Below, piece by piece: positions 4,001-42,987 of a DNA stretch of 64,000 nt. A program made the translations under genes and the position numbers. Below the pieces are notes generated by a model. The model saw only the letters and a list, made by a program, of their open reading frames with translations. It did no database searches and had not been told where the DNA came from. Origin of the DNA: a virus (lineage: Duplodnaviria; Caudoviricetes); IMG/VR virus record IMGVR_UViG_3300012956_000018, positions 1 through 64,000 of that record; one strand, given 5' to 3'. Each line of letters begins with the position of its first letter. The stretch's first letter is position 1.

Positions 4001-5265
4001 CTGGTGGTCAAGATGCAGCTGATTCAAACAAATTAGCCGATGATGATAAGGACGAGCTACCTGTGCCGCCTATATCAGAAGGAGCATTAGGCGGCCATCC
4101 AGTTGCTGCTAGTATTATTTCTACTAATCAACATGATAGGGTTATGAGAGTAGTTCCTAATAATCCTGATCACTGGCAGTTAGTAAGAGATATTCTCAAA
4201 GCTAATGGAGCTACCCTGGCTCCTGATGTGCCTGGTGAAGTTAGAGTAGTAGTACCAGCAGGAGTGCTTGATCCTATGAGTCATTATCACATCAATGATG
4301 TCTCAGCTAATCCGCTACCAGTAAGTCCTGCTGCTATGGACTCAGTAAGAAACATTGTATCAGCAGTTATATCCAAGAATGGTAAAGCTGCAGGTATGCG
4401 TAAGCTGATTTCTATAGAATCTGAGCTTAGTCAGCTGAAGGATGTCAAGAAATTGTCTGAAGGAGTAAAGAATTTAGATAATATTAAGAATGAATTATTT
4501 GGATCTTCACTTGCGCCTGATAGAGATAGTAAAATGATGAAGACGGAAAAGATATCCGATGATGTAAATAATCTAGCAAAAATTATTGTCGAGGCATCTA
4601 AGATAGTATCTTCACTAGAGAAATCTAGTGTATCTCCTGAAGTAATGGCTTCAGTTAAGTCACTAGTAGAGTATGTTCAAAATTGTGAGGATTTAGTGGC
4701 TAGAGGGGCGTCTTTACTAGATACTAAAGATAAAGAAGTCTCCAAGTTAATAGAAGGTCTTCACAGTGTGTTTGTCACCGATACTCCAGTAAAGAATCTA
4801 AGTGAAGCTCTAGATATTATTCAACAGAGTGGAAAGATGATCGGTGGATTAAAATCCCAGTTGAATGATGCTAGTAATAGGACTACTACTATAATGACTC
4901 TTATCGATAATATAAGAGTATTTTACCGTAAAGAATTTAATACACTCAAGAAGCGTAATGAAGCTAGCACCAAGCTAGTCGAAGCACTACGATCCCGAAT
5001 AAGACTCATGGTAGATACTAAGGAATCTTCTAAGTACGATGCTCCTAAGGATATTGCTGAAGCTGCTGACGCAGTTATTGCTAAATATCCTGCTCTTCGC
5101 ATATTCCGAGAAGAGTTGATTAAGATAGCTAAGAAGTCAGACGATGTTCATGGTCTTGCTAAGAAGTATCTTGGAATTCGCGAGACTAGTATTAGCTATA
5201 CTGAAGCTAAGGATACTCGTAAATCAGGAACAGGTGAGAGAAGCATAGTTCCTGGCATGATTTAA
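1066..5265 (+). CDS. prohead core protease (T4 gp21-like) fused to repeated cargo modules and an acidic/coiled-coil scaffold
   Basis: N-terminal ~200 aa has ENLNHRTYP, DHP...ASH and GVSIRGFG (catalytic His/Ser motifs of gp21-type proteases); the rest is modular with many (I/L/V)xE-S/A sites; directly upstream of the MCP. Confidence 0.85.
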   Translation: MYKIPKGFHFLRESGLAVPGTPVSRRIAERLTLTEAKSNGQLRIVLPATVLDTENLNHRTYPTKVMKKAIESKEFRAKMEGGYLLCSGDDHPDTPYVKPILASHLVTNAFIKKIEGVSYLMNEWLTLPTDNGRNLRGVFEGGAAIGVSIRGFGRSADNESSASGVIEEYEYLGTDAVGEPSAKLYAGIKVPHVEVLECVTPKITLSESRAIVEDRKHYNDKDEWVKDVVRLGLKLNADKDTAWNPDIPEVTRASWMANHNRGWIIEASISTLGSSDYDNFDDWKGDALDKGYDVSNDNGVFYASRNGDVRGAFDKNSNSGYLESRIVESMEVGKRVKVITQDSPYYNKSGKIVKSYIVSNDRGSMRYGVVFDDGSASDFWYRDLVEESFTKDNEGWCVVTAGNKVKAGPYTYKNDARTVIDRNPNWEGLSILWGTKDSNNSYVKTSASDTRNSEATECGGDLPPAPIIKKDDEEDTHESVKEAFYSNKDAWINDMKEHGAASFEEDGSAVYAYSSEKKILGVWSNTENQGITIGESKSYAVGDRISWKDIAYGSVSDTQQASGKIVDIQGSNITVVRDDDNSTEIIDVSSINEARDKKSYKVGDTIYWDEEDPGEILGRFTTMSGMVTDVQRNGYIVRRDDDDTEELIQFSWVNEAVYSDFNAWKIGASSFGAVTFTTKDDDEYAQDPNKKIVGIWSSKMKKGLTGSGVEAMISRLESKSVFKEWIDNYYLVKKTATTAPGGDDGHTHNYDPLIKHGITGPGGPDSHTHVFSISLGETAPGGTDGHTHLMDFAIVPVESLIKSSNKDKHSLIENINSLVSHVHPSDFNAILTVAKNYLGYLAKDSISIESVLNKAHWKTLESMQNVLCNSKFSYITHSSISNTEASKMKKIKEEILGGDEVSIQSPNPNNATADKDSADTLGGDSSDENQDQGPLNATADEDDAPLLGGDSSTSQDESDNNSTSESKKKLKEDILDADAGGQDAADSNKLADDDKDELPVPPISEGALGGHPVAASIISTNQHDRVMRVVPNNPDHWQLVRDILKANGATLAPDVPGEVRVVVPAGVLDPMSHYHINDVSANPLPVSPAAMDSVRNIVSAVISKNGKAAGMRKLISIESELSQLKDVKKLSEGVKNLDNIKNELFGSSLAPDRDSKMMKTEKISDDVNNLAKIIVEASKIVSSLEKSSVSPEVMASVKSLVEYVQNCEDLVARGASLLDTKDKEVSKLIEGLHSVFVTDTPVKNLSEALDIIQQSGKMIGGLKSQLNDASNRTTTIMTLIDNIRVFYRKEFNTLKKRNEASTKLVEALRSRIRLMVDTKESSKYDAPKDIAEAADAVIAKYPALRIFREELIKIAKKSDDVHGLAKKYLGIRETSISYTEAKDTRKSGTGERSIVPGMI

Positions 5266-5294: not shown

Positions 5295-6746
5295 ATGGAC
5301 TCGATTATTACTGAAATCGCTGGTGGCAATCGTCTTGTTACTGAGAGTAATAGAGATGCTGATGCCGAAAGAGCCCTTCTTAAAGAAGGATATGATGTTA
5401 TCGAAACTCATCCTAAGTGGAGAGATCGTTACCGTAGTTTAGTAGAGAAGGTGGATAAAGGCAATCTACGTGAAAGACGAGTTGCTGCTTCTACTTTCGT
5501 CGTTATGAGAAATCAGGAAAATTACCTGAATACTCTTAATGAAGCTACTATTATGAATTCTCTGGGGCCTCTAGCTCCTAGTGTGATGGATATTGTTCGC
5601 ATATTCTTCCCGAATATGATAGCAAATCTCATTGCTGAGATTCAGCCTATCGCTCAGCCTAATAGCTCAGTGTTAACTGTAAAGCCTCGCTATACTAACA
5701 GCGGTGGTGGAGTTAATGCTGGAGATGAAGTGTTTAAGAAAGGTACTGATGGCAATTATGCGTCGGATACTGTTACTTGGGCTCTAGGTACTGGTAATGC
5801 TGTTGCGACCAACTTCACTGCCACCCTCACTCCAGCTCCTATCCGTCCAGGCACTGTGAGAGTGTATGTGAATGGAGCAAGTATTGCTGCTGATAACGGT
5901 GATGGAGGGTTCCATGGAGCTGCTCTTAGTACCGGTACATTGAACTATACTTCTGGCGCTATTAGTGTAACTTTCGGCACTGCTCCAGCTGCTGCTGCTG
6001 CTATTACCTTAGAGTATAGGTACGATTATGAAATCAATGTTGACAATCTGAGAGGATTGGATATTGGTCTCAATCTTGTGCCTGTTAATGCCAAGCCTCA
6101 TCCTTTGAAACTGACTTGGTCAGTAGCGTCACAACTAGCTGCTCAGGCTCAGTATTCACTGGATGTTGAATCTACTCTTGCTGATCTAGCAGCTCAGTTT
6201 ATTCGTAAGGAGAGAGACTGGGCTCTTGTTAGCAGGATCTCTAATGCTGCGACTGCTGTGACTGATCTTAATTTTGATGCCACTGTCCCTAATAGTGGTA
6301 ATGCTCTTACTAAGAAGCAGCACTATCAGGATTGGGGTCTGAAGTTACGTCGTGCATCGAGCTTTATTTATAATAAGAATCAGAGAGGTAATGTTAGTTT
6401 CGTGTTAGCAGGCATCAATGCTGCTGACGTGATTAGTGCTCAGGCTAACTTTATTCCTGAGCCAACTGTTGTTCCAATCGGTGCTTACAAGATCGGTACC
6501 CTTGATGGTGTAGTGGATGTCATTCTTGATGCTTCTATGGATGCGAATACCTATGTGTTCGGATTCCGTGGTATGCAGCTGGGTGATGCTGCTATGATCA
6601 TTGCTGAGTGGATTCCTATCTTCGTAACTCCAACTTGGCAGTCGCCAAATCTGCAGGGTCAGCAGGGCTTACTCAGTATGTATGATTACTTACTGAATAA
6701 TCCTGACTACTATGCTAAGGGCACTCTGTCTGGTTATACTGCTTAA
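5295..6746 (+). CDS. major capsid protein (T4 gp23-like) with an inserted beta-rich domain
   Basis: IVRIFFPNMIANLIAEIQPI, VPVNAKPHPLKLTWSVASQLAAQAQYSLDVE and YKIGTLDG match gp23-family patterns; propeptide with LVTE-S and LNE-A sites; GGAG RBS; hairpin terminator downstream. Confidence 0.92.
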   Translation: MDSIITEIAGGNRLVTESNRDADAERALLKEGYDVIETHPKWRDRYRSLVEKVDKGNLRERRVAASTFVVMRNQENYLNTLNEATIMNSLGPLAPSVMDIVRIFFPNMIANLIAEIQPIAQPNSSVLTVKPRYTNSGGGVNAGDEVFKKGTDGNYASDTVTWALGTGNAVATNFTATLTPAPIRPGTVRVYVNGASIAADNGDGGFHGAALSTGTLNYTSGAISVTFGTAPAAAAAITLEYRYDYEINVDNLRGLDIGLNLVPVNAKPHPLKLTWSVASQLAAQAQYSLDVESTLADLAAQFIRKERDWALVSRISNAATAVTDLNFDATVPNSGNALTKKQHYQDWGLKLRRASSFIYNKNQRGNVSFVLAGINAADVISAQANFIPEPTVVPIGAYKIGTLDGVVDVILDASMDANTYVFGFRGMQLGDAAMIIAEWIPIFVTPTWQSPNLQGQQGLLSMYDYLLNNPDYYAKGTLSGYTA

Positions 6747-7255: not shown

Positions 7256-7606
7256 ATGTTAATTGATATTAATACAGCTCTCACTACTCTTGATGGCCAG
7301 AAGATGTTTGAGGCTAGAAGAGATAAAGATGGTAACGATATTCGTGAAGCTGTGACTCTTCGTAATATTTGTATCGGAGCTCTATTAGCTGAGACTAAGA
7401 ATCCTGTAGCAGGTGAAATTAAATTCAAAAGGTATCAACTAGCTACTAAAATACAAAGCTCAGAAAGAGAAATAAATCTATCATCTGACGAAATTGTTAT
7501 GCTAAAAGAGCTAATCGGTCAGAATTTTATAACTTTGGTAGTGGGAAGAGCATATGATTTACTTGAAGGCGGAGCTGCAATAACTAATAAGTCTGTAGCA
7601 GCATAA
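7256..7606 (+). CDS. conserved phage hypothetical protein
   Basis: KFKRYQLATKI...EIVMLKELIG...VVGRAYDLLE; GGAG RBS. Confidence 0.65.
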   Translation: MLIDINTALTTLDGQKMFEARRDKDGNDIREAVTLRNICIGALLAETKNPVAGEIKFKRYQLATKIQSSEREINLSSDEIVMLKELIGQNFITLVVGRAYDLLEGGAAITNKSVAA

Positions 7607-12225: not shown

Positions 12226-12810
12226 ATGTTCAATATTTTAGTGAAAGAGAGAATCCGTGGATTTTCTAATTTAGTATTTCGCACTAAGGGAGGAATACGT
12301 ACTCCTTTATTTGATATGTTTGTTCCTCGTCACAATAATATTCTATTTATATTTGAAGGCCCAACATACGGCAAAATGCTAGTTCCTGCTCATAATATTA
12401 TTACTGATGCTGGAGATATCCACTATGCTCAGAGAGCAGTAGCAGAAACTCTTACTAATGCATTCGGTATACTCGAGTTGGGATCAGCTGGTACTCCGGG
12501 TAAGAGTGCTAATAGATCTTCATTTACTCCTATTTCAAGCACTCAGAAAGCTCATGATGCCACTTACCCGCGTCGCAATGATAATGATGCGGATAATACT
12601 GGCGCCGGTACTCGCATTGTTACTTTCCGTACTTCTTATACGGCTGCTGATTTCAATGCTACTGGTATTGCTAGAGGATGGATTACGAATACTTCGCCTG
12701 GTGCGAGTGAGCCGATTCTTACTGGCTTTACTCTGCCTAATTCTCCTTTTGATAAGTCTGCAAGTGACTCTCTGAAAGTATTTACTAATCATACCATGAA
12801 TGGAGTGTAA
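12226..12810 (+). CDS. virion structural protein
   Basis: HNIITDAG...FRTSYTAADFNATGI...FDKSASDSLKVFTNHT pattern of phage fibre-attachment proteins; GGAG RBS. Confidence 0.65.
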   Translation: MFNILVKERIRGFSNLVFRTKGGIRTPLFDMFVPRHNNILFIFEGPTYGKMLVPAHNIITDAGDIHYAQRAVAETLTNAFGILELGSAGTPGKSANRSSFTPISSTQKAHDATYPRRNDNDADNTGAGTRIVTFRTSYTAADFNATGIARGWITNTSPGASEPILTGFTLPNSPFDKSASDSLKVFTNHTMNGV

Positions 12811-12815
12811 CACTA

Positions 12816-13631
12816 GTGGCTTCTAATCTGAATAAAGTTACTCTCATACGAGATAGACTTAAAACAGATCTTGGAGATGTAGTATGGGATGTTGAGAGCA
12901 AGGATTTGATGAATTACATTAGACTAGCTTGCTTTAGATTCTATACTGCTAAGCCCATAGAGAAGCTACACAGGCAAGAAGTAAGTCTTGGTACAACTTC
13001 AGTAGATATTGAATCTCTGACTACTACAATATTCGGAGTAGATGCTGATAAATTCTATTTTCTAGGATTGGTATATTCTAATTATATGTTGCAAGGAGAA
13101 GAAATATTAAGTGGAGGATCTAATGTTAATCCATTTAACGTATTTCTATTCCAGAATCTTATGGGATATGGAGGGCCATCATCTTTAGGATCATGTACTG
13201 GAGGATCTAGAATTAGTTCTTTCAATGCTATGACCCAAGATGCTCTGGCTCCTCTACTATATGCTACTAAGAAGGATACTATTATGGGAGATGAGTCCTA
13301 TGAATGGGATCCTATAGCTCATAAAGTTAGAATAACAGCTCCAGCTGCTGGATCTGTAACTATGAGTCTTGCATATGGCTATAATGGTATTAGTGATGAT
13401 ATAAGTGATGTACCATTGTTAGGAGTAGCTTATAATTACTTAGATATTGTTGCTAATTTAGTTACTGAAGAATACTTGAAAGATCTCATTATGTCTAGAG
13501 GAACAGTTAGCCTAGCTAGCTCAGATTTTACAATAAACATTGACATAATGAAGGAGAGATATGACGATATTAAAGTCCAGAATAGAGAAAACTTAGAAAA
13601 GATAGTGTCCCCTTATATTTTAATGGCGTAG
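12816..13631 (+). CDS. neck/head-tail adaptor protein (T4 gp13-like)
   Basis: GTG start; IRDRLKTDLG...LMNYIRLACFRFY N-terminus and position between head and tail genes. Confidence 0.6.
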   Translation: MASNLNKVTLIRDRLKTDLGDVVWDVESKDLMNYIRLACFRFYTAKPIEKLHRQEVSLGTTSVDIESLTTTIFGVDADKFYFLGLVYSNYMLQGEEILSGGSNVNPFNVFLFQNLMGYGGPSSLGSCTGGSRISSFNAMTQDALAPLLYATKKDTIMGDESYEWDPIAHKVRITAPAAGSVTMSLAYGYNGISDDISDVPLLGVAYNYLDIVANLVTEEYLKDLIMSRGTVSLASSDFTINIDIMKERYDDIKVQNRENLEKIVSPYILMA

Positions 13632-13636
13632 GATAT

Positions 13637-13897
13637 ATGTTTAAATTTCTTCATCCATCTTCTTTAACTGCTGCAGCTCAGGTAATACTCTCATTAGTAT
13701 TTATAATAGGATACTTTTGGGTGTTGAATAAGGTATTGAGTGGCGATATTAAAGTCATAGAAGGATATACTGAAGTAGTCTCTGCATTACTAGGAGTAGT
13801 TACTGGTAGTGTGGTTACTATAGTAGCATTTTGGTTTTCTAGATCTAGAGAAACTAAAGTAGTATCAGATTCTACTTCAGAAGATTCTGCCAAGTAA
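13637..13897 (+). CDS. holin-like two-TM membrane protein
   Basis: Two hydrophobic helices, LLGVVTGSVVTIVAFWFSRS motif and a charged C-tail. Confidence 0.6.
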   Translation: MFKFLHPSSLTAAAQVILSLVFIIGYFWVLNKVLSGDIKVIEGYTEVVSALLGVVTGSVVTIVAFWFSRSRETKVVSDSTSEDSAK

Positions 13898-13898
13898 T

Positions 13899-14204
13899 AT
13901 GCCGAAATTATTATCAGTAATTGAATCTAAGTTATATACTATAAAAGATCTTCGACGTGCTGCATCAAGAGTAGGCGCTACAGTTGAAGATAATAGCACT
14001 AAGTATGAATTAGATTATCAAGTTATGTCGCCTCATGGTAAATTTTGGAAAGATTCGAATAGTGTTCACCTGGCTGTGTATACTTATAAAAATGATTTAA
14101 ATCAAGTTAGCAGTACTATACAAGATGCTATAGAAAGAATAGAATTCGGTCTTTATGACCCTGGTAAGGAAGAGTATGAGTATCAAACTGGAGAGAAATA
14201 CTGA
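13899..14204 (+). CDS. small MPKL-leader protein 1 (putative internal head protein)
   Basis: Starts MPKLLSVIES. Confidence 0.7.
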   Translation: MPKLLSVIESKLYTIKDLRRAASRVGATVEDNSTKYELDYQVMSPHGKFWKDSNSVHLAVYTYKNDLNQVSSTIQDAIERIEFGLYDPGKEEYEYQTGEKY

Positions 14205-14446
14205 TGCCTAAGCTAACTAAATTAGTATCAGAATGTATATCTGAATCTCTACTGCCAAATATTAAATCATCTGTATCTGAAATGAATACGCTAGGTATTG
14301 ATTGGGATAGATATACTTTTATATCTACCGACGGAAACAGTATAAAGATATCTATTGATGCAAAGAAACTGGTTAGAGATTATGGTAAATTTGGATTCGA
14401 CTCATACAAAGAACCGAGTGGATTTGTTACTATAGAGATTAATTGA
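14204..14446 (+). CDS. small MPKL-leader protein 2
   Basis: Starts MPKLTKLVSECISES; TGATG overlap. Confidence 0.7.
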   Translation: MPKLTKLVSECISESLLPNIKSSVSEMNTLGIDWDRYTFISTDGNSIKISIDAKKLVRDYGKFGFDSYKEPSGFVTIEIN

Positions 14447-14447
14447 T

Positions 14448-14783
14448 ATGCCTAAGCTTATAGATATTTGTGAATCTTTATATTATGATGTAGCTATATT
14501 ATATTTTCGTAATCCTTACGATGCTGATAGTGCTGCGTCTATATTACACGGTTCAAAATTACTTAAAGGATCTTTAGTAAAGTTAAATAAATCCACGGAC
14601 AGAATAATATTTAATGATATATCTAGAGATATGTATTTGAAAGCTATACAACTATTATCTGCGAATAATATTCGATTCGATCAAGAGACCCCAGAAACTA
14701 GTGTGCCCGTTGGAACATCAGTTCGTAGTGGGTTCACTAATAATGTTAACAGGGCTCAGTATAAGTATAGAGTTGCTAAATGA
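14448..14783 (+). CDS. small MPKL-leader protein 3
   Basis: Starts MPKLIDICES. Confidence 0.7.
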   Translation: MPKLIDICESLYYDVAILYFRNPYDADSAASILHGSKLLKGSLVKLNKSTDRIIFNDISRDMYLKAIQLLSANNIRFDQETPETSVPVGTSVRSGFTNNVNRAQYKYRVAK

Positions 14784-14951
14784 AAGTGATAAAGTATTCT
14801 GAAACGTTCTATAGGGCCGAGGTGCATTCGCACTCTCGATCTTATAGTCACGATAATAAGATACTAAATAGTGACTACATTATCTACTGTGTGTAAATAG
14901 TATAAAATTAATAAGATCTATTACTATAGAGATCAATTAGGAATTATATCT

Positions 14952-15133
14952 ATGCCTAAATTAATAAAACTGGAGTATTTAGTTTTGAAGTTCAAAGCTT
15001 AGGAGGGAGAATAGGAGGTAAGATTGGAGGAGCAGTAGCAGGAAAGACTTATCACAAGTGTCCTCAGTGTGGAGCAGAAGGCCGTGGGCCGTCTATGCTT
15101 AGATGGCATATGAGTAATTGCAAAAAGAAATAG
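14952..15133 (+). pseudogene. chimeric remnant: MPKL leader joined out of frame to a homing-endonuclease-like C-terminus
   Basis: ATG 14952 gives MPKLIKLEYLVLKFKA*; the -1 frame 14960-15133 gives ...QSLGGRIGGKIGG...CPQCGAEGRGPSMLRWHMSNCKKK* with no start codon. Confidence 0.6.
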
Positions 15134-15138
15134 CTGCT

Positions 15139-15735
15139 ATGGAAAATTTTAAAACAGCTTTCGATAAGACTATGGCTCATGAAGAAGGATATGCAAACGA
15201 TCCTGATGATTTAGGAGGGGAGACTATCCGTGGTATAGCTAGAGCCTATCATCCTAAGTGGCTAGGATGGGCTAAGATTGATCTTATTAAGGCTCATGGA
15301 AATACTACTGCTGAGCAAATTAATGCTATTGTAAAATCAGATCCTACACTAATTCATTTAATACTAGAATTTTATAGAGATGAGTTTTGGGATAAGATAA
15401 GAGGTGATGAATTACCTCTTGAACTATCTATGGAGATGTTCGATACTGCTGTAAACATGAGTCCATCTAGAGCTATAGAATTTCTTCAAGAAGGATTAAA
15501 TCTCAGTAATCGTAATCAAAAAGATTACCCAGATATTCTAGTAGATAGTAAATTAGGACCTACTACTATGAATACATTAAAATTATATCAAACTAAGTCT
15601 CCTAGAGATATTCAGTTTCTTATCAATATAATGAACATCCTTCAAGGATGTTACTATATTAATAGGTATCGTCAGTCTCCTACTCAAGAAAAGTATCATG
15701 GCTGGTTCAATAGGGTAATAATCAAACATGCCTAA
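15139..15735 (+). CDS. endolysin, glycoside hydrolase family 108 with peptidoglycan-binding domain
   Basis: HEEGYANDPDDLGGETIRGI, FYRDEFWD, MFDTAVNM, DSKLGPTT, GWFNRV. Confidence 0.9.
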   Translation: MENFKTAFDKTMAHEEGYANDPDDLGGETIRGIARAYHPKWLGWAKIDLIKAHGNTTAEQINAIVKSDPTLIHLILEFYRDEFWDKIRGDELPLELSMEMFDTAVNMSPSRAIEFLQEGLNLSNRNQKDYPDILVDSKLGPTTMNTLKLYQTKSPRDIQFLINIMNILQGCYYINRYRQSPTQEKYHGWFNRVIIKHA

Positions 15736-16039
15736 ATTAATATCGATTAAAGATAGTATAGAATCTCAATGGCCGAATTTAGTAGCATTTGTACATGGAG
15801 CATTTCAAGCTAATAGCGGTGCTCCTAAATCTAAAGCTATAGATTTCCTAAATAATGAACTAAAGATTAATTCTAATATTAAAAATCTTTACGATCTTGC
15901 AGATAAGTCTCTTGTTACTATATTCGGTACTATAAGTAATATTAAGATTGCTGGTATGGATGCTGATACCGGAGATAATAGTAGTCAAGGAAAAATTATT
16001 CCTGCATCTGCTATTAGTATACTAGATAATGCGTATTAG
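15728..16039 (+). CDS. small MPKL-leader protein 4
   Basis: Starts MPKLISIKDSIES. Confidence 0.7.
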   Translation: MPKLISIKDSIESQWPNLVAFVHGAFQANSGAPKSKAIDFLNNELKINSNIKNLYDLADKSLVTIFGTISNIKIAGMDADTGDNSSQGKIIPASAISILDNAY

Positions 16040-16041
16040 AT

Positions 16042-16242
16042 ATGCCTAAGCTTATTTCAGTTAAGGGGATGAAATTAACAGCAAATCGTGACAACAATAG
16101 CAGATTTATTGCTATTGTATCATCTAAAGAAGAAGCTGCTAGTATTATAGATAATATGGAAGCGAGTGGTACTTGGCCTGAGGGATTTGATGCTATTTTA
16201 GATAATATATGGCTGTATACTGATAAGTGGGAATCTCTTTGA
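16042..16242 (+). CDS. small MPKL-leader protein 5
   Basis: Starts MPKLISVKG. Confidence 0.65.
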   Translation: MPKLISVKGMKLTANRDNNSRFIAIVSSKEEAASIIDNMEASGTWPEGFDAILDNIWLYTDKWESL

Positions 16243-16445
16243 TGTCTAAGCTATTAAAACTAGACGGCATAGCTTTGCTGTATTTTACTAGCTTTGAAAG
16301 CTGGTCGGCTAAGGCTATCGAATTAGGCTATGATAGATTAGATAAAGATAAAAACGCTAAAGCTATAAATCCTGATACAGGCGAAATAGTAGGTGGATGG
16401 GACTCTAATTCTAAATTTTGGTGGATAAGAGATAAAGATGCCTAA
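16242..16445 (+). CDS. small MSKL-leader protein 6; free-standing copy of a protease module
   Basis: TGATG overlap; MSKLLKLDG...FTSFESWSAKAIELGY...AINPDTGEIVGGWDS resembles four modules inside 1066..5265. Confidence 0.7.
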   Translation: MSKLLKLDGIALLYFTSFESWSAKAIELGYDRLDKDKNAKAINPDTGEIVGGWDSNSKFWWIRDKDA

Positions 16446-16671
16446 TCTTATAGATATTATTGAAACTGATGGGTTAGATCTTAATATGATAGGCGTAGAT
16501 AGCGATTTATTTGCTATAAGAATAAATAATATTAAATATAAATATAGACCCATAAATATGTCTCCTCAGGAATTAGCAGTAAAATTTTCAAAGATGTCAG
16601 TATTTAGTAAGGGCAAAGCCCTAGCGTGGTTAAAGAAGAACTCTGAATTAGCAGATAAGTCTGCTATTTGA
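16438..16671 (+). CDS. small MPNL-leader protein 7
   Basis: Starts MPNLIDIIET; C-terminus KFSKMSVFSKGKALAWLKKN. Confidence 0.7.
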   Translation: MPNLIDIIETDGLDLNMIGVDSDLFAIRINNIKYKYRPINMSPQELAVKFSKMSVFSKGKALAWLKKNSELADKSAI

Positions 16672-16689
16672 TATTTTAGGAGATACACT

Positions 16690-17217
16690 GTGTTTAATGT
16701 AGTAAATATTAAAAGTAAAATGAGAAAAGTAGGTTATACTGAGAAAGTGATAAGATCAGTATGTAGTATACTGGCTCTTGAATCGAATACTCGATTACCC
16801 CACCACACTATGATTTTGGCATGCAGAAATGCTAGGATTAATGTTGATGAATTTAAGAATAAGATATTAGAATCTGATTTCAAAGTAGGCGATAAGGTAA
16901 GAGTGCCTAAAGATTTATCAGGTGAAGATAGAGATTTAATTGGAACTGTGATTAGTGCTGGGAATGCAGAAGTAAAGGTGCAATTACCTACTGGCCAAGG
17001 ACCGAGTTATCAAATAATTGTTATGGATACTGAAATCAGTAAAGAATCAGTACTAAAAGAAGATCATTTTCAGGTAGATGACAGAGTGATGACTAAAGAT
17101 GGTGATACCGGTAAAGTCACTAGTATTCTTAATTATGGTACTGATGATGAAGTATATATGATAAAGCTGGACAATGGTAGTATTAGAGACTATAGACCTA
17201 GTGAGTTGGTACTTTAA
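16690..17217 (+). CDS. protein with two KOW/SH3-like modules
   Basis: GTG start after GGAG; ILES-DFKVGDKVRV and VLKE-DHFQVDDRVMT...GKVTSI. Confidence 0.7.
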   Translation: MFNVVNIKSKMRKVGYTEKVIRSVCSILALESNTRLPHHTMILACRNARINVDEFKNKILESDFKVGDKVRVPKDLSGEDRDLIGTVISAGNAEVKVQLPTGQGPSYQIIVMDTEISKESVLKEDHFQVDDRVMTKDGDTGKVTSILNYGTDDEVYMIKLDNGSIRDYRPSELVL

Positions 17218-17219
17218 CT

Positions 17220-17666
17220 ATGGCAACTATAGCTGAGCTTATTAGTTCTACTAATAGCTTTAAGCCTATACTATTTACTAATGCGAATAGTGTATATGTA
17301 GACCAACTCAATATTACCAGATCCAAGGGTACCAGAACTATTTTATTTACTGCTGTGACTAAAGATAGGCATTCGCCATCAGGAAGAACTGCTCAAATGC
17401 AATTTGTTCTACCTAAGGATGTAAAGATTGAAGATTATAGACCATCTATAAGTAAAGACAGAGTTTTAGTAAGATGTTCTAGTCCGTGGTACAAGTACGC
17501 ATTTGGTTATAATAATGCTAGAATAAAAGCTCAGTTCGGAAGAATTAGCGAATTTACTGTTTTAGGTACAGGGAGACCTGTTAACCCAAAGAATTATCCT
17601 GGATTAGATAAGCATTTAATAGCTATGACTAGAGCTCTTAAAGATGAGAGGTTAATAAGTGGATGA
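17220..17666 (+). CDS. SWIM-finger-like phage head-region protein, zinc ligands degenerate
   Basis: VLVRCSSPWYKY...NPKNYPGLDKHLIA aligns with the V.CSC..F.Y...NP....G.CKHL pattern. Confidence 0.6.
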   Translation: MATIAELISSTNSFKPILFTNANSVYVDQLNITRSKGTRTILFTAVTKDRHSPSGRTAQMQFVLPKDVKIEDYRPSISKDRVLVRCSSPWYKYAFGYNNARIKAQFGRISEFTVLGTGRPVNPKNYPGLDKHLIAMTRALKDERLISG

Positions 17667-18741: not shown

Positions 18742-19428
18742 ATGAAGACTATTGAAATAAGAGATGCCAATTATGTAGTTGGCAAATCAGGTATGAGACT
18801 GTCGGCTAATAACGGAGCAACTGTAGTAGAGTTTTATCAAGGGGATGGTATTCGAATCTCAAATAAAGGAGGTTATCCTGTTATTGAGTTTAGGGTATCG
18901 GGTAAAGATCTTCAAGTCAAAGTGGAAACTAAGGCAGACTTGAAAAATCTGCTTGAACGAGTACACCACGAGACAGAGTTCAAAACTGAATCTCTTGATC
19001 TTATGGAAGCCATAGCCAGAGATAGTAGAGATCTACCTACTGAGAAGTTGGTAGATGCATTTTCTGAATCTTTTAATCTTGATACAGGTAGACTTAATAC
19101 CAGTATTAAAGTTACTAAGAGAGTAGCAGATCTTAATGTAGAATCTAAGGCTAAGCTGTTATCTTCTGCTAAGTGCATATTCTCTGAAGCTGATGAGTCT
19201 GCTCTTGTGTCTATTACTGATGCTGAAGATCAGGATCTTGCTGATGACGATGATAAGGACGAAGACGAAAATAAGCAAGAATCTAGCAGACGTAAGATAA
19301 AAGAGAATGATGACGAAAATGACGACAATAAGGATGATGTGAAGGAAGATACTGATAAAGACGAAGATGATGACAATAAGGACGATGATAAAATGGAATC
19401 TCGTCGTAAAGTAAGAAAATCTAAGTAA
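18742..19428 (+). CDS. prohead core/scaffold-like protein with acidic C-terminus
   Basis: Asp/Glu-rich tail with repeated ES(S)RRKI/VK motifs and xxE-S/A protease-type sites. Confidence 0.6.
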   Translation: MKTIEIRDANYVVGKSGMRLSANNGATVVEFYQGDGIRISNKGGYPVIEFRVSGKDLQVKVETKADLKNLLERVHHETEFKTESLDLMEAIARDSRDLPTEKLVDAFSESFNLDTGRLNTSIKVTKRVADLNVESKAKLLSSAKCIFSEADESALVSITDAEDQDLADDDDKDEDENKQESSRRKIKENDDENDDNKDDVKEDTDKDEDDDNKDDDKMESRRKVRKSK

Positions 19429-19513
19429 TTTATTATTTAATATAGTCACGTCGGTTAGGATAACTAGAAATGAGTGGCGGAATTATTTTCTTTAGATAAA
19501 AGCAGCTCTAGAT

Positions 19514-19720
19514 ATGCCATCAGTCTTAGTAAAATCCCTAGCTAAAAAATATTCTAAATCCATTGACGATGTAGAATCTAAGTGGAATAGAGCTAAAGCT
19601 ATAGTATCTAATCAGTACGGCAATGTAGATGATCACTACGGAGCAGTAGTATCTATAGTCAAGAAGATGTTGAAAGGCGAATCTGTATTAATCGGTATAA
19701 AGTATGCCAAGTCCAGTTAG
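19514..19720 (+). CDS. conserved myovirus head-region hypothetical protein
   Basis: MPSVLVKSLAKKYSKSIDDVESKWNRAK...YGAVVSIVKKML. Confidence 0.65.
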   Translation: MPSVLVKSLAKKYSKSIDDVESKWNRAKAIVSNQYGNVDDHYGAVVSIVKKMLKGESVLIGIKYAKSS

Positions 19721-20147
19721 AATGTATGTTGAGAGATCGATACCTAGGTTGATAAAATATAGAGATGATTGGATAGATAAATCTGGACAGATGGTATCTG
19801 TTATTAGGCCTGAGAGTATATCTACGAATGTGTACGGAGATACTACTGTAGTATCCTCTGAAAATATTCATAAAATACCTATGGTCATTAATTGGCAAGA
19901 ATATCGATTACTATTGTCTTTTAGTGATGCTTCAGAAGAAAATAATGTACCACTAGTAGCTATTGTTAGATTAATAGATAACTTGCCTAAGGGCACATTA
20001 GTAAAGATCGAAACATTCAGTGCTGATGCAATAAGTGACGAGAGCTTTCAATGGTTTAGAATAGTGAAGACAAATGCATATCATGAAATATTACAACATG
20101 GTAAAAGAGTAACTATGGTAGTTCAAAGAGGAGTAACATTTAAATGA
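19704..20147 (+). CDS. head closure/neck protein (gp14-like)
   Basis: STNVYGD motif, beta-barrel pattern, position before the tail completion gene. Confidence 0.5.
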   Translation: MPSPVRMYVERSIPRLIKYRDDWIDKSGQMVSVIRPESISTNVYGDTTVVSSENIHKIPMVINWQEYRLLLSFSDASEENNVPLVAIVRLIDNLPKGTLVKIETFSADAISDESFQWFRIVKTNAYHEILQHGKRVTMVVQRGVTFK

Positions 20148-20440
20148 CGACTACTGTAGCTAGTTTAGGGCCTATGACTACTCAAGCAGTATCTTCTAAC
20201 AAGATAAGGAAAGTAGGATCGAAGATAAATAAGAAAAAGAATAATATACTTGTGTCTACTAAAGAATATGTTTTAGTAGAATATTATAACAATGATACAG
20301 ATATGGAAGTAGTTAGAATAAAAGAAAATGGAGAATTTATTAGAATATCAGAATCTATTAAAAAGATAAAAGATTCTTCAGATGAATTAGTGAATTCTGC
20401 TAGAGTAAAGAAACTTATTGATATGGATACTGTAATGTAA
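20144..20440 (+). CDS. hypothetical protein
   Basis: ATGA/TAATG overlaps with both neighbours. Confidence 0.55.
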   Translation: MTTTVASLGPMTTQAVSSNKIRKVGSKINKKKNNILVSTKEYVLVEYYNNDTDMEVVRIKENGEFIRISESIKKIKDSSDELVNSARVKKLIDMDTVM

Positions 20441-21114
20441 TGTTAATAGACATAGATACTGCTGTAGTTACTCACGTTGCAGGAATGGTAGGCAGATTAA
20501 ATAGTCTAAAGTATCCCTCAACTAGAGTTAAATTAGAATTAGTCGAAGATGAGAATACTCATCTACGATCTATTGAACTAGCTAGTAGACAGAATAACCA
20601 CGAGCCAGATACTGCTACAAGAAGATTTCCTTTTGTAATAGTATATAGAGGAAATTCTGTATCTAGAGTAAACTCGTCATCATCGTCAAAAGCTGCCATC
20701 AGAGATATTGTACTAAGAGAAGATACAATAACTGGCGAAGTAGCTTTAGCTGATGGTAAGCAGATATCTCTGGAATATGTAATATATCAGTACACCACGT
20801 CATTTGCAGAACTTACTGAGTTATTTGAATACTGGGCAGTCAATATCGGAGAACATCATACTGCTATGGATTTTAGATTTTCTGAGTCTCAACTGAATCC
20901 AGTACAGTTTAAAGGCAATATAGTATTCAAAGAGCCAGAATCAGTGAGGCCATCTGTATCAACAATAGAAGATCAAGGTACTGTATATATTCAGAAATTC
21001 CCATTTACTCTTGATACAATAGTTCTGACAAATGTCAGGGATAGTAATGAATTAATACTCCAAGTACAATCTACTGTCTATGTTCTTAGACCCGATGAAG
21101 TATTCCCAGTTTAA
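20440..21114 (+). CDS. tail completion/terminator protein (gp15-like)
   Basis: RFPFVIVYR motif; immediately upstream of the sheath gene. Confidence 0.55.
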   Translation: MLIDIDTAVVTHVAGMVGRLNSLKYPSTRVKLELVEDENTHLRSIELASRQNNHEPDTATRRFPFVIVYRGNSVSRVNSSSSSKAAIRDIVLREDTITGEVALADGKQISLEYVIYQYTTSFAELTELFEYWAVNIGEHHTAMDFRFSESQLNPVQFKGNIVFKEPESVRPSVSTIEDQGTVYIQKFPFTLDTIVLTNVRDSNELILQVQSTVYVLRPDEVFPV

Positions 21115-42295: not shown

Positions 42296-42676
42296 ATGCC
42301 ATGGTTAAAATTTGCTCCGTATATAATTATCGCTGTTCTATTATCTATTATAGGAGGCATGAAGTACTATTATAGTAATAAGATTGAAAATCTGAGTAAT
42401 AATGTTGCTACTGAGAGGGCAAATGTTAAAATATTGTCTAAAGACTTGGAATCATGTAAGTCTTCAGTAAAGGAACAAAATAAATCTATAGATGAATGGA
42501 AGGCTAAATCTGAAGATGCTCAGATAGCTTTAGATAAAGCAATAAAAGATGCTAGTGATATAAGAAAAGCTAGCGATAAGAGGATTAGAGATATATTATC
42601 TAGGCCTCTTGCTACTGATTGTAGTTCTGCAATTAAAGAGTTGAGGGATTCTGCTAGAGAGGATAGTGTATGGTAA
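42296..42676 (+). CDS. i-spanin (Rz-like)
   Basis: N-terminal TM helix plus coiled coil, overlapping a downstream lipoprotein gene. Confidence 0.8.
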   Translation: MPWLKFAPYIIIAVLLSIIGGMKYYYSNKIENLSNNVATERANVKILSKDLESCKSSVKEQNKSIDEWKAKSEDAQIALDKAIKDASDIRKASDKRIRDILSRPLATDCSSAIKELRDSAREDSVW

Positions 42677-42987
42677 AGTATATTTTTATTATATTACCAT
42701 TTTTATTAGCAGGATGTGCTGATAAGAGCAAGTTAATTGAAAGTAGCCCAACTACTACTGCTAAAGTAGTAGTGCCTATTCAATGCCCAAAGCCATCAGA
42801 ATTAAATAGACCTGATTTAGAAGTACTTTCTTTAATAAATGAATCATCAAGCGATGGCGAAGTAGTTAGAGCATATAGAGTGGCCTTAACTGATATAAAA
42901 GGATATGCTAAGGAATTAGAGAAGATTCTCCAAGGGTATAAAGAAGCATGCTCTAAGACGACTTCTCAGGAGAATAATCATCAATAA
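42670..42987 (+). CDS. o-spanin lipoprotein (Rz1-like)
   Basis: Lipobox LAGC; Pro/Cys VPIQCPKP segment. Confidence 0.8.
   Translation: MVKYIFIILPFLLAGCADKSKLIESSPTTTAKVVVPIQCPKPSELNRPDLEVLSLINESSSDGEVVRAYRVALTDIKGYAKELEKILQGYKEACSKTTSQENNHQ

Follow-up and report, generated by a model that had tools for sequence, protein, structure and literature searches.

To our knowledge, a minimal capsid-targeting peptide has been shown experimentally essentially only in phage T4. There, the capsid-targeting sequence (CTS) of the basic internal proteins, reportedly studied by Mullaney and Black in 1996, underlies protein delivery by the phage particle and is the route by which diverse anti-restriction proteins enter the host before gene expression. 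Here we describe an array of small genes that share an N-terminal leader peptide, located on the plus strand at positions 13899-16671 of a contig from an uncultured phage of the Caudoviricetes (IMG/VR record IMGVR_UViG_3300012956_000018). The window analysed comprises the first 64,000 nucleotides of this linear viral contig, which comes from an activated sludge metagenome, measures 77,090 bp and is ~70% complete. The leader array is real and non-random. The explanation that we consider most likely, with about an even chance of being correct, is that its shared leader is a new capsid-targeting and propeptide peptide, a functional analogue of the T4 CTS.

In T4, IPI, IPII, IPIII and Alt carry the CTS as their N-terminal 10-19 residues; it gives them an affinity for the scaffold core, and gp21 cleaves it off (PMC9026906, PMC3012670). 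Residues 4 and 7 of the CTS serve targeting and residues 8 and 10 processing (PMC9026906), and its sequence is MKTYQEFIAE (PMC8442874). Beyond the CTS, the internal proteins of T-even phages are diverse (PMC9026906, PMC3012670, PMC8442874). Proteases of the gp21 type cut after glutamate, at L/I-x-E in T4 and at A/S/G-x-E in phages phiKZ and SPN3US (PMC5694885). Furthermore, the giant phages phiKZ, 201phi2-1 and SPN3US have inner-body or ejection proteins that bear propeptides, for which prohead targeting has been proposed, and gp53 and gp54 of SPN3US are diverged paralogues with identical N-termini (PMC5694885, PMC10052503).

A leader shared by small proteins with dissimilar bodies

The consensus M-[P/S]-[K/N]-L-[I/L/T]-x-[I/L/V] opens seven intact, tightly packed open reading frames (ORFs) of 66-111 aa, and an eighth copy of the leader opens a broken gene within the same 2.8 kb (Table 1, in which intact members are numbered by position). 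All eight starts lie and read as stated in the sequence-only reading, an earlier interpretation of this DNA. A six-frame scan of all 77,090 bp, which covers the genome in part given the completeness of the contig, found no further ORF of at least 15 aa with an M[PSA][KNR]L start. On this contig the motif is confined to the array, and the concern raised earlier that MPKL starts could be equally common among non-structural genes did not materialize. Given the amino-acid composition, the 135 ORFs of at least 60 aa should contain 0.026 MPKL starts; five exact starts, one remnant and two near-variants were observed, all of them inside the 2.8 kb.

The conservation of the leader resides in the peptide, as had been proposed. 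Proline is encoded by CCG or CCT, lysine by AAA (three times) or AAG (four times) and leucine by TTA, CTA or CTT, with no effect on the residues. Conservative non-synonymous changes exchange I, L, V and T for one another at positions 5 and 7, and the DNA upstream of the leaders is unconserved. Taken together, these patterns indicate selection on the peptide. They also bear on an alternative in which the conserved 5' coding sequence acts as RNA, either in translational coupling and re-initiation or as microhomology for cassette recombination. Such a role would be in line with the lack of a good Shine-Dalgarno sequence in most array genes, which abut or overlap the upstream stop codon, and with stretches of 16-30 nt that are 81-94% identical between leaders. 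However, the free variation at synonymous positions, together with the amino-acid exchanges at residues 5 and 7, argues against it, and no other tightly coupled gene of the contig carries the motif. We therefore regard a function at the RNA level as highly improbable.

An alignment of the seven proteins retains M1 and L4 as its only invariant columns, and residue 7 is hydrophobic throughout. In five of the seven, the leader closes with [I/V/S]-x-Glu, where the Glu occupies one of residues 9-12 and the next residue is Ser, Thr or Cys. More specifically, the sites are VIE↓S, VSE↓C (plus ISE↓S in the same protein), ICE↓S, SIE↓S and IIE↓T, where the arrow marks the putative cut; in three leaders the site lies at residues 7-9. 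Among ORFs of at least 60 aa, the pattern [ILV]xE[small] with Glu at residues 8-13 occurs in nine, four of which are array members.

Behind the leader, the proteins differ. BLASTP between bodies reached a best E of ~0.1, so the earlier description of the bodies as unrelated stands with respect to mutual alignment; it needs qualifying, since weak similarity to parts of the head-core polyprotein described below is seen in four of the seven. Neither Pfam nor PHROG gave a match for any of the seven proteins, and homologue searches with members 1 and 3 returned self-matches only (for member 1, among 5.8 billion proteins). Coding status was assessed by codon log-odds in each frame, with the endolysin gene of the same stretch as a yardstick. 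In the annotated frame, the seven ORFs scored 0.31-0.52 (endolysin 0.39), and the other two frames were negative. Phage-typical codon usage in the annotated frame only identifies the seven ORFs as real genes and not as recent imports. The encoded proteins have masses of 7.4-12.6 kDa, with sizes in the range of IPI-IPIII. A signal peptide or lipoprotein signal was also considered for the leader and rejected, as no hydrophobic stretch follows it.

Structure models were examined for members 1, 3 and 7. For member 3, AlphaFold2 without an alignment modelled a core at residues 11-80 with a predicted local distance difference test (pLDDT) score of 73-88, and residues 1-10 scored 39. The ESM Atlas model of member 7 has a pLDDT of 0.78; with most of the structural neighbours of this model, the alignment begins at about residue 10 or beyond. 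The model of member 1 is of low confidence (mean pLDDT 52, residues 1-10 below 50). The models place residues 1-10 of members 3 and 7 outside the predicted fold. The array folds obtained differ from one another, and Foldseek searches of the PDB and the ESM Atlas returned generic ferredoxin-like or unnamed phage matches, with nothing specific.

Head protease, scaffold-like domain and modules resembling the array

Upstream of the array, the phage encodes a 1399-aa head-core polyprotein. It consists of a gp21/S77 protease (residues 1-200), four A modules, three SH3/KOW-like B modules, a His-rich repeat with three copies of PGGxDxHTH at residues 745-800, an acidic linker and a coiled-coil, scaffold-like C-terminus; the A modules (~50 aa) and B modules were defined by hidden Markov models (HMMs). 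A protease-domain profile from five homologues matched T4 gp21 (PDB 5JBL), residues 67-194, at E=1.7e-7, so that the homology extends across the catalytic region, as expected of a Peptidase S77 prohead protease. His91 (DDHP) and Ser148 (GVSIRG) are invariant in the five homologues and are the putative catalytic residues. With this protease, which Pfam also assigns to S77, and a major capsid protein of the gp23 family, the T4-type head enzymes that a cleaved leader presupposes are present. Sheath, tube and baseplate genes lie downstream of the head module; a portal gene was not found on the ~70%-complete contig.

Glutamate followed by a small residue, namely Ser or Ala, occurs at all A/B module junctions of the polyprotein (residues 207, 266, 323/328, 387, 478/482, 535, 593, 655 and 710/717), and none of the polyprotein's sites falls inside an A or B module. 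This distribution suggests that the polyprotein self-cleaves into about ten pieces. At the N-terminus of the protease, F/L-x-E at residue 13 is invariant in five homologues. In the capsid protein, a Glu followed by A/S/G ahead of the conserved core is invariant in 11 homologues, and the maturation cut probably falls after the Glu of LNE↓A at about residue 83. The ends of the five leaders, the module junctions, residue 13 of the protease and the capsid site carry the same motif of Glu followed by a small residue.

The only Met-preceded match to the leader outside the array is MRKLISIESE at Met1111, where the scaffold-like domain of the polyprotein starts; this site represents an internal start or, alternatively, a sequence recognized by the protease. 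The likeness between array and polyprotein extends beyond this peptide. At least the first 25 residues of member 1 align with the start of the scaffold-like domain (BLASTP E=0.002), and member 4 aligns with scaffold residues 1216-1285 (E=0.001). Residues 3-32 of member 5 match polyprotein residues 564-594 (BLASTP E=0.004), where the second half of a B module lies, and like a junction they end in ..EE↓A. Member 6 is the best non-self ORF on the contig for an HMM built from the four A modules of the polyprotein (E=1.1e-3). At E<0.02, the polyprotein was matched by four of the seven array members, compared with three of 112 control comparisons between the seven array proteins and 16 other large contig proteins. 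We suggest in addition that the N-terminus of the scaffold-like domain is either the source of the leader or the model that the leader mimics. For the B-module HMM, the best non-self match was the ORF at 16690, just downstream of the array, with a non-significant E of 0.17.

A shared cut motif could also mean that the leader does no more than allow the head protease to recognize and cut the array proteins. These would then be pro-forms that the protease activates or destroys, or they would compete with it, and they would not be retained in the capsid. The agreement of the leader ends with the junction motif and with KLISIE↓S (residue 1118) indeed bears on cleavage and not on targeting. However, the invariant part of the leader lies within residues 2-7, upstream of the cut, and is present as well in the two members without a Glu site. 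In addition, the T4 protease acts inside the prohead (PMC9026906), so its substrates must be inside anyway. Taken together, we consider a pure cleavage signal to be quite improbable.

The A module is not restricted to this phage. A profile that included member 6 retrieved four further proteins from 1.84 billion representative proteins, two of which start with MKTFTEL..IEE↓A and MKSFKQIREE↓A. DUF6267 proteins adjoining these A-module proteins start with M(I/V)SFKEFI(N/T)E. All of these N-termini, which stem from phage-like metagenome contigs, resemble the T4 CTS and hint at a wide distribution of CTS-like tags beyond the T-even phages. The A module appears to occur in three ways: behind CTS-like N-termini elsewhere, behind the new leader here, and inside the polyprotein.

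Insertion site and growth of the array

Comparison with other phages was based on long contigs (L002, L004 and L005) with capsid-protein homologues of 57% identity or less; in the nearest long contigs, the capsid protein is ~53% identical to the one studied here. Homologues of the window genes at 12816-13631 and 17220-17666 are adjacent in L004 and separated by one unrelated gene in L002. Since these flanking genes are adjacent in L004, positions 13637-17217 represent a 3.6-kb insertion at a variable spot of the late head-neck operon. The insertion contains a holin-like gene, three leader genes, decayed remnants, a GH108 endolysin gene, four leader genes and a gene for a 175-aa protein. Its position within a late structural operon suggests late expression, which fits proteins that need to be packaged. 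Neither the capsid protein nor the neighbouring 271-aa protein retrieved any close relatives in scans of IMG/VR, and the source run and one wastewater run contained the identical sequence, with no variants and no joints. The notion of an exchangeable set has indirect support, in that the array is inserted relative to related phages and holds relics of duplication, but no alternative cassettes were found.

Five proteins of L005 with a common N-terminus were considered as a second leader group and rejected, as they are full-length GxW-repeat paralogues. In this 197-kb relative, the five GxW pentapeptide-repeat paralogues (12385-14424 and 19423-20839) share a conserved 60-aa N-terminal domain and flank the S77 protease gene.

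Within the array, several traces of duplication are visible. The relic of a member-2-like gene coincides with direct repeat D12 (14421-14444 and 14915-14938, 88% identity), the leader DNA of members 7 and 3 is 87% identical (repeat D6), and the codons of the leaders fall into subfamilies. The relic, the broken eighth member and the codon subfamilies indicate that the array grows by duplications that carry the leader along, after which members diverge or decay. The eighth copy had been called a remnant; it is better described as a frameshifted gene, since the other frame is open from 14960 to 15133 and the relic of a gene like that at 14204 precedes it. At its end, this second frame encodes a zinc-ribbon-like tail, CPxC..H..C, and its G+C is higher there. 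The eighth member could be a pseudogene or frameshifted gene, or reflect an assembly error in a run of A. Coding scores are weak in the stretch between member 3 and the endolysin gene.

The same duplication history is the main support for a plainer explanation, namely that the array proteins are fast-diverging, tandemly duplicated paralogues whose N-terminus is a binding site for one common partner or a structural element that all of them share, such as a docking strand, without any packaging into the capsid. Descent by duplication would account for the relics within the array (D12 and the broken eighth member) and for the codon subfamilies of the leaders. Furthermore, the "leader" of member 5 aligns with a strand of an SH3-like module, and two members have no Glu site. 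In contrast, a paralogue family leaves unexplained the protease motif at the leader end of five members, the copy of the leader at the start of the scaffold-like domain and the likeness of the bodies to head-core modules. The models that put residues 1-10 outside the fold also speak against such a family, and the A-module body occurs elsewhere without the leader, so that leader and body are separable. We consider such a family unlikely, yet a serious contender.

The lysis genes of the phage are split. The holin-like and endolysin genes lie in the array stretch, and a spanin-like pair, a membrane protein and a lipoprotein with LAGC, is located at 42296-42987, 26 kb from the array. Family searches with the 86-aa protein at 13637..13897 gave no match; its topology and the nearby endolysin point to a putative holin. 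The true start of the endolysin is probably the ATG at 15139. A consensus scan for promoter-like sites gave no more hits than shuffled sequence.

Two further observations concern other parts of the contig. Two late and otherwise unrelated proteins, encoded at 7256-7606 (116 aa) and 20440-21114 (224 aa), are alike in their first 11 residues, MLIDI[N/D]TA[L/V]xT (8/11 identical, E=0.01), and LIDI also occurs in two array leaders; this may be a second shared N-terminus of the same phage. At the far end of the contig, outside the window, the final 60 bases (~77031-77090) resemble part of a minus-strand tRNA gene (..GGTTCGATTCCCTGG.. reverse-complemented), and the contig break falls inside this tRNA-like gene.

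Table 1. Features of the array, its surroundings and related sequences. Positions refer to the window unless a contig is named; arrows mark putative cuts after Glu.
Feature	Position	Strand	Details
Head-core polyprotein, 1399 aa	1066..5265	+	PHROG 207, E=8e-15; Pfam Peptidase_S77, 27.1 bits
Start of scaffold-like domain, Met1111	4396..4425	+	MRKLISIESE
Major capsid protein, gp23 family	5295..6746	+	Pfam Gp23, E=2.7e-26
Holin-like protein, 86 aa	13637..13897	+	two hydrophobic segments in the translation; first gene of the insertion
Member 1, 101 aa	13899..14204	+	MPKLLSVIE↓S
Member 2, 80 aa	14204..14446	+	MPKLTKLVSE↓C, second site ISE↓S; start overlaps the upstream stop codon
Member 3, 111 aa	14448..14783	+	MPKLIDICE↓S; ferredoxin-like body
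Relic, 3' end of member-2-like gene	14893..14940	+	..SITIEIN-stop (member 2: ..FVTIEIN-stop); direct repeat D12
Broken eighth member	14952..15133	+	MPKLIKLE; stop at 15000 (16 codons)
Endolysin, GH108 + PG_binding_3	15118..15735	+	no leader; Pfam 1.7e-19 and 2.9e-9; PHROG 315
Member 4, 103 aa	15728..16039	+	start MPKLISIKDSIES; leader MPKLISIKDSIE, putative cut before S
Member 5, 66 aa	16042..16242	+	MPKLISVKG; no early Glu
Member 6, 67 aa	16242..16445	+	MSKLLKLDG; body is an A module
Member 7, 77 aa	16438..16671	+	MPNLIDIIE↓T
Terminator-like hairpin and T-rich tail	16649..16666	+	consensus scan; end of the array, exactly at the end of the last leader gene
Protein of 175 aa	16690..17217	+	no leader; two SH3/KOW-like repeats; own strong Shine-Dalgarno; GTG start; last gene of the insertion
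CTS-like starts in phage-like metagenome contigs	L008:5782-6747, L006:953-1510, L008:2771-3880, L009:3-521

A candidate capsid-targeting propeptide among known systems

The proposal that the leader is a capsid-targeting propeptide of the T4 type came through the sequence-level tests of its core idea, which concerned the protease, the Glu site (present in five of the seven leaders), the copy at the scaffold-like start and the exclusivity of the motif. If it is right, the insertion in the head-neck operon would give rise to the seven small proteins late in infection. Their leader, with Leu4 and hydrophobic residues 5 and 7, resembles the first residues of the scaffold-like domain and would bring them into the prohead core, which would itself be built from the protease-module-scaffold polyprotein. 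The gp21-type protease would cut after the Glu at residues 9-12 in five members, at the motif it would also use in its own polyprotein and in the capsid protein. The mature proteins of 6-11 kDa would remain in the head and, when the DNA enters the host, would probably go in with it. Core binding, cleavage, packaging, injection and a function as cargo are each predicted steps of this scheme.

Several observations weigh against capsid targeting. Members 5 and 6 have no Glu near residue 10, so cleavage cannot be universal. The isoelectric points are 4.6-5.6 in five of the seven proteins and 9.0-9.3 in two, so that the set does not share the basic character of the T4 internal proteins. The leader, MPKLIxIxE↓S, has no sequence similarity to MKTYQEFIAE. 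The individual matches to the polyprotein are weak, with E from 1e-3 to 2e-2, and the lysis genes within the array mean that the insertion is not a pure cargo cassette. Neither the array nor comparable groups with a shared N-terminus were found in L002, L004 and L005 or in the 77.5 kb examined of the cultured Xanthomonas phage phiXF1. In IMG/VR, a degenerate DNA pattern representing MPKLIxIxE matched at 60 places, each time singly; most of these hits lie in one unrelated conserved protein, and none is an array. Finally, the anti-defence role proposed in the sequence-only reading has nothing but analogy in its favour: the Pfam and PHROG searches gave it no backing, and the PADLOC library, which covers defence rather than anti-defence proteins, was not searched.

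A broader proposal is that the phage loads its head by two parallel routes, one through modules embedded in the polyprotein and one through free-standing genes that carry a portable, scaffold-derived tag, MPKLIxI..E↓S, and form a hypervariable cassette of injected effectors at a hot spot of the late operon. We put this forward tentatively and think it rather more likely to be wrong than right.

Should the leader indeed direct proteins into the capsid, it would be a second, sequence-independent minimal capsid-targeting peptide outside the T-even phages, and the principle would be general. The peptide would be usable for loading foreign proteins into phage heads, and the seven proteins without known relatives would become candidate injected effectors. 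The visible link between the leader, the N-terminus of the scaffold-like domain and a protease polyprotein that carries cargo would hint at how such tags arise. It would also supply a search rule for other phages, namely shared N-termini that end at the motif of the head protease.

The closest parallel remains the CTS of T4. Both systems have an N-terminal peptide of about ten residues, which here has a terminal Glu in five of seven members, on otherwise dissimilar small proteins, hydrophobic residues at positions 4 and 7, a protease of the gp21 family, a capsid protein of the gp23 family and a scaffold core. In contrast to T4, the genes form a seven-member tandem array in a late head-neck operon, and most bodies are acidic rather than basic. 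Furthermore, the leader has a similar counterpart in the same phage, at the start of the scaffold-like domain, and protease, modules and scaffold are fused into one protein. With the giant phages phiKZ, 201phi2-1 and SPN3US, the system shares a gp21-like protease and a short motif with Glu, here a putative cut site. Their propeptides, however, mostly span 80-160 residues and belong to large paralogue families, whereas the array encodes proteins of 7-12 kDa without relatives. The propeptides of the giant phages are also supported by mass spectrometry, while the array is known from its genes alone.

Protease and scaffold also share one reading frame in lambda C/Nu3 and similar systems, in which an internal Met may give rise to a separate product. 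Here, in contrast, protease and scaffold are set apart by some 900 residues of repeated modules that are cargo-like, and the peptide at the N-terminus of the scaffold-like domain is copied in free-standing genes. Finally, the cargo-loading peptides of encapsulins provide a parallel in which a short terminal peptide is thought to be sufficient for unrelated cargo to enter a shell with the capsid-protein fold. These peptides are usually C-terminal and uncleaved and bind the shell directly, in a system without protease or DNA packaging, whereas the leader of the array is N-terminal and occurs together with a putative protease site and a head that packages DNA.

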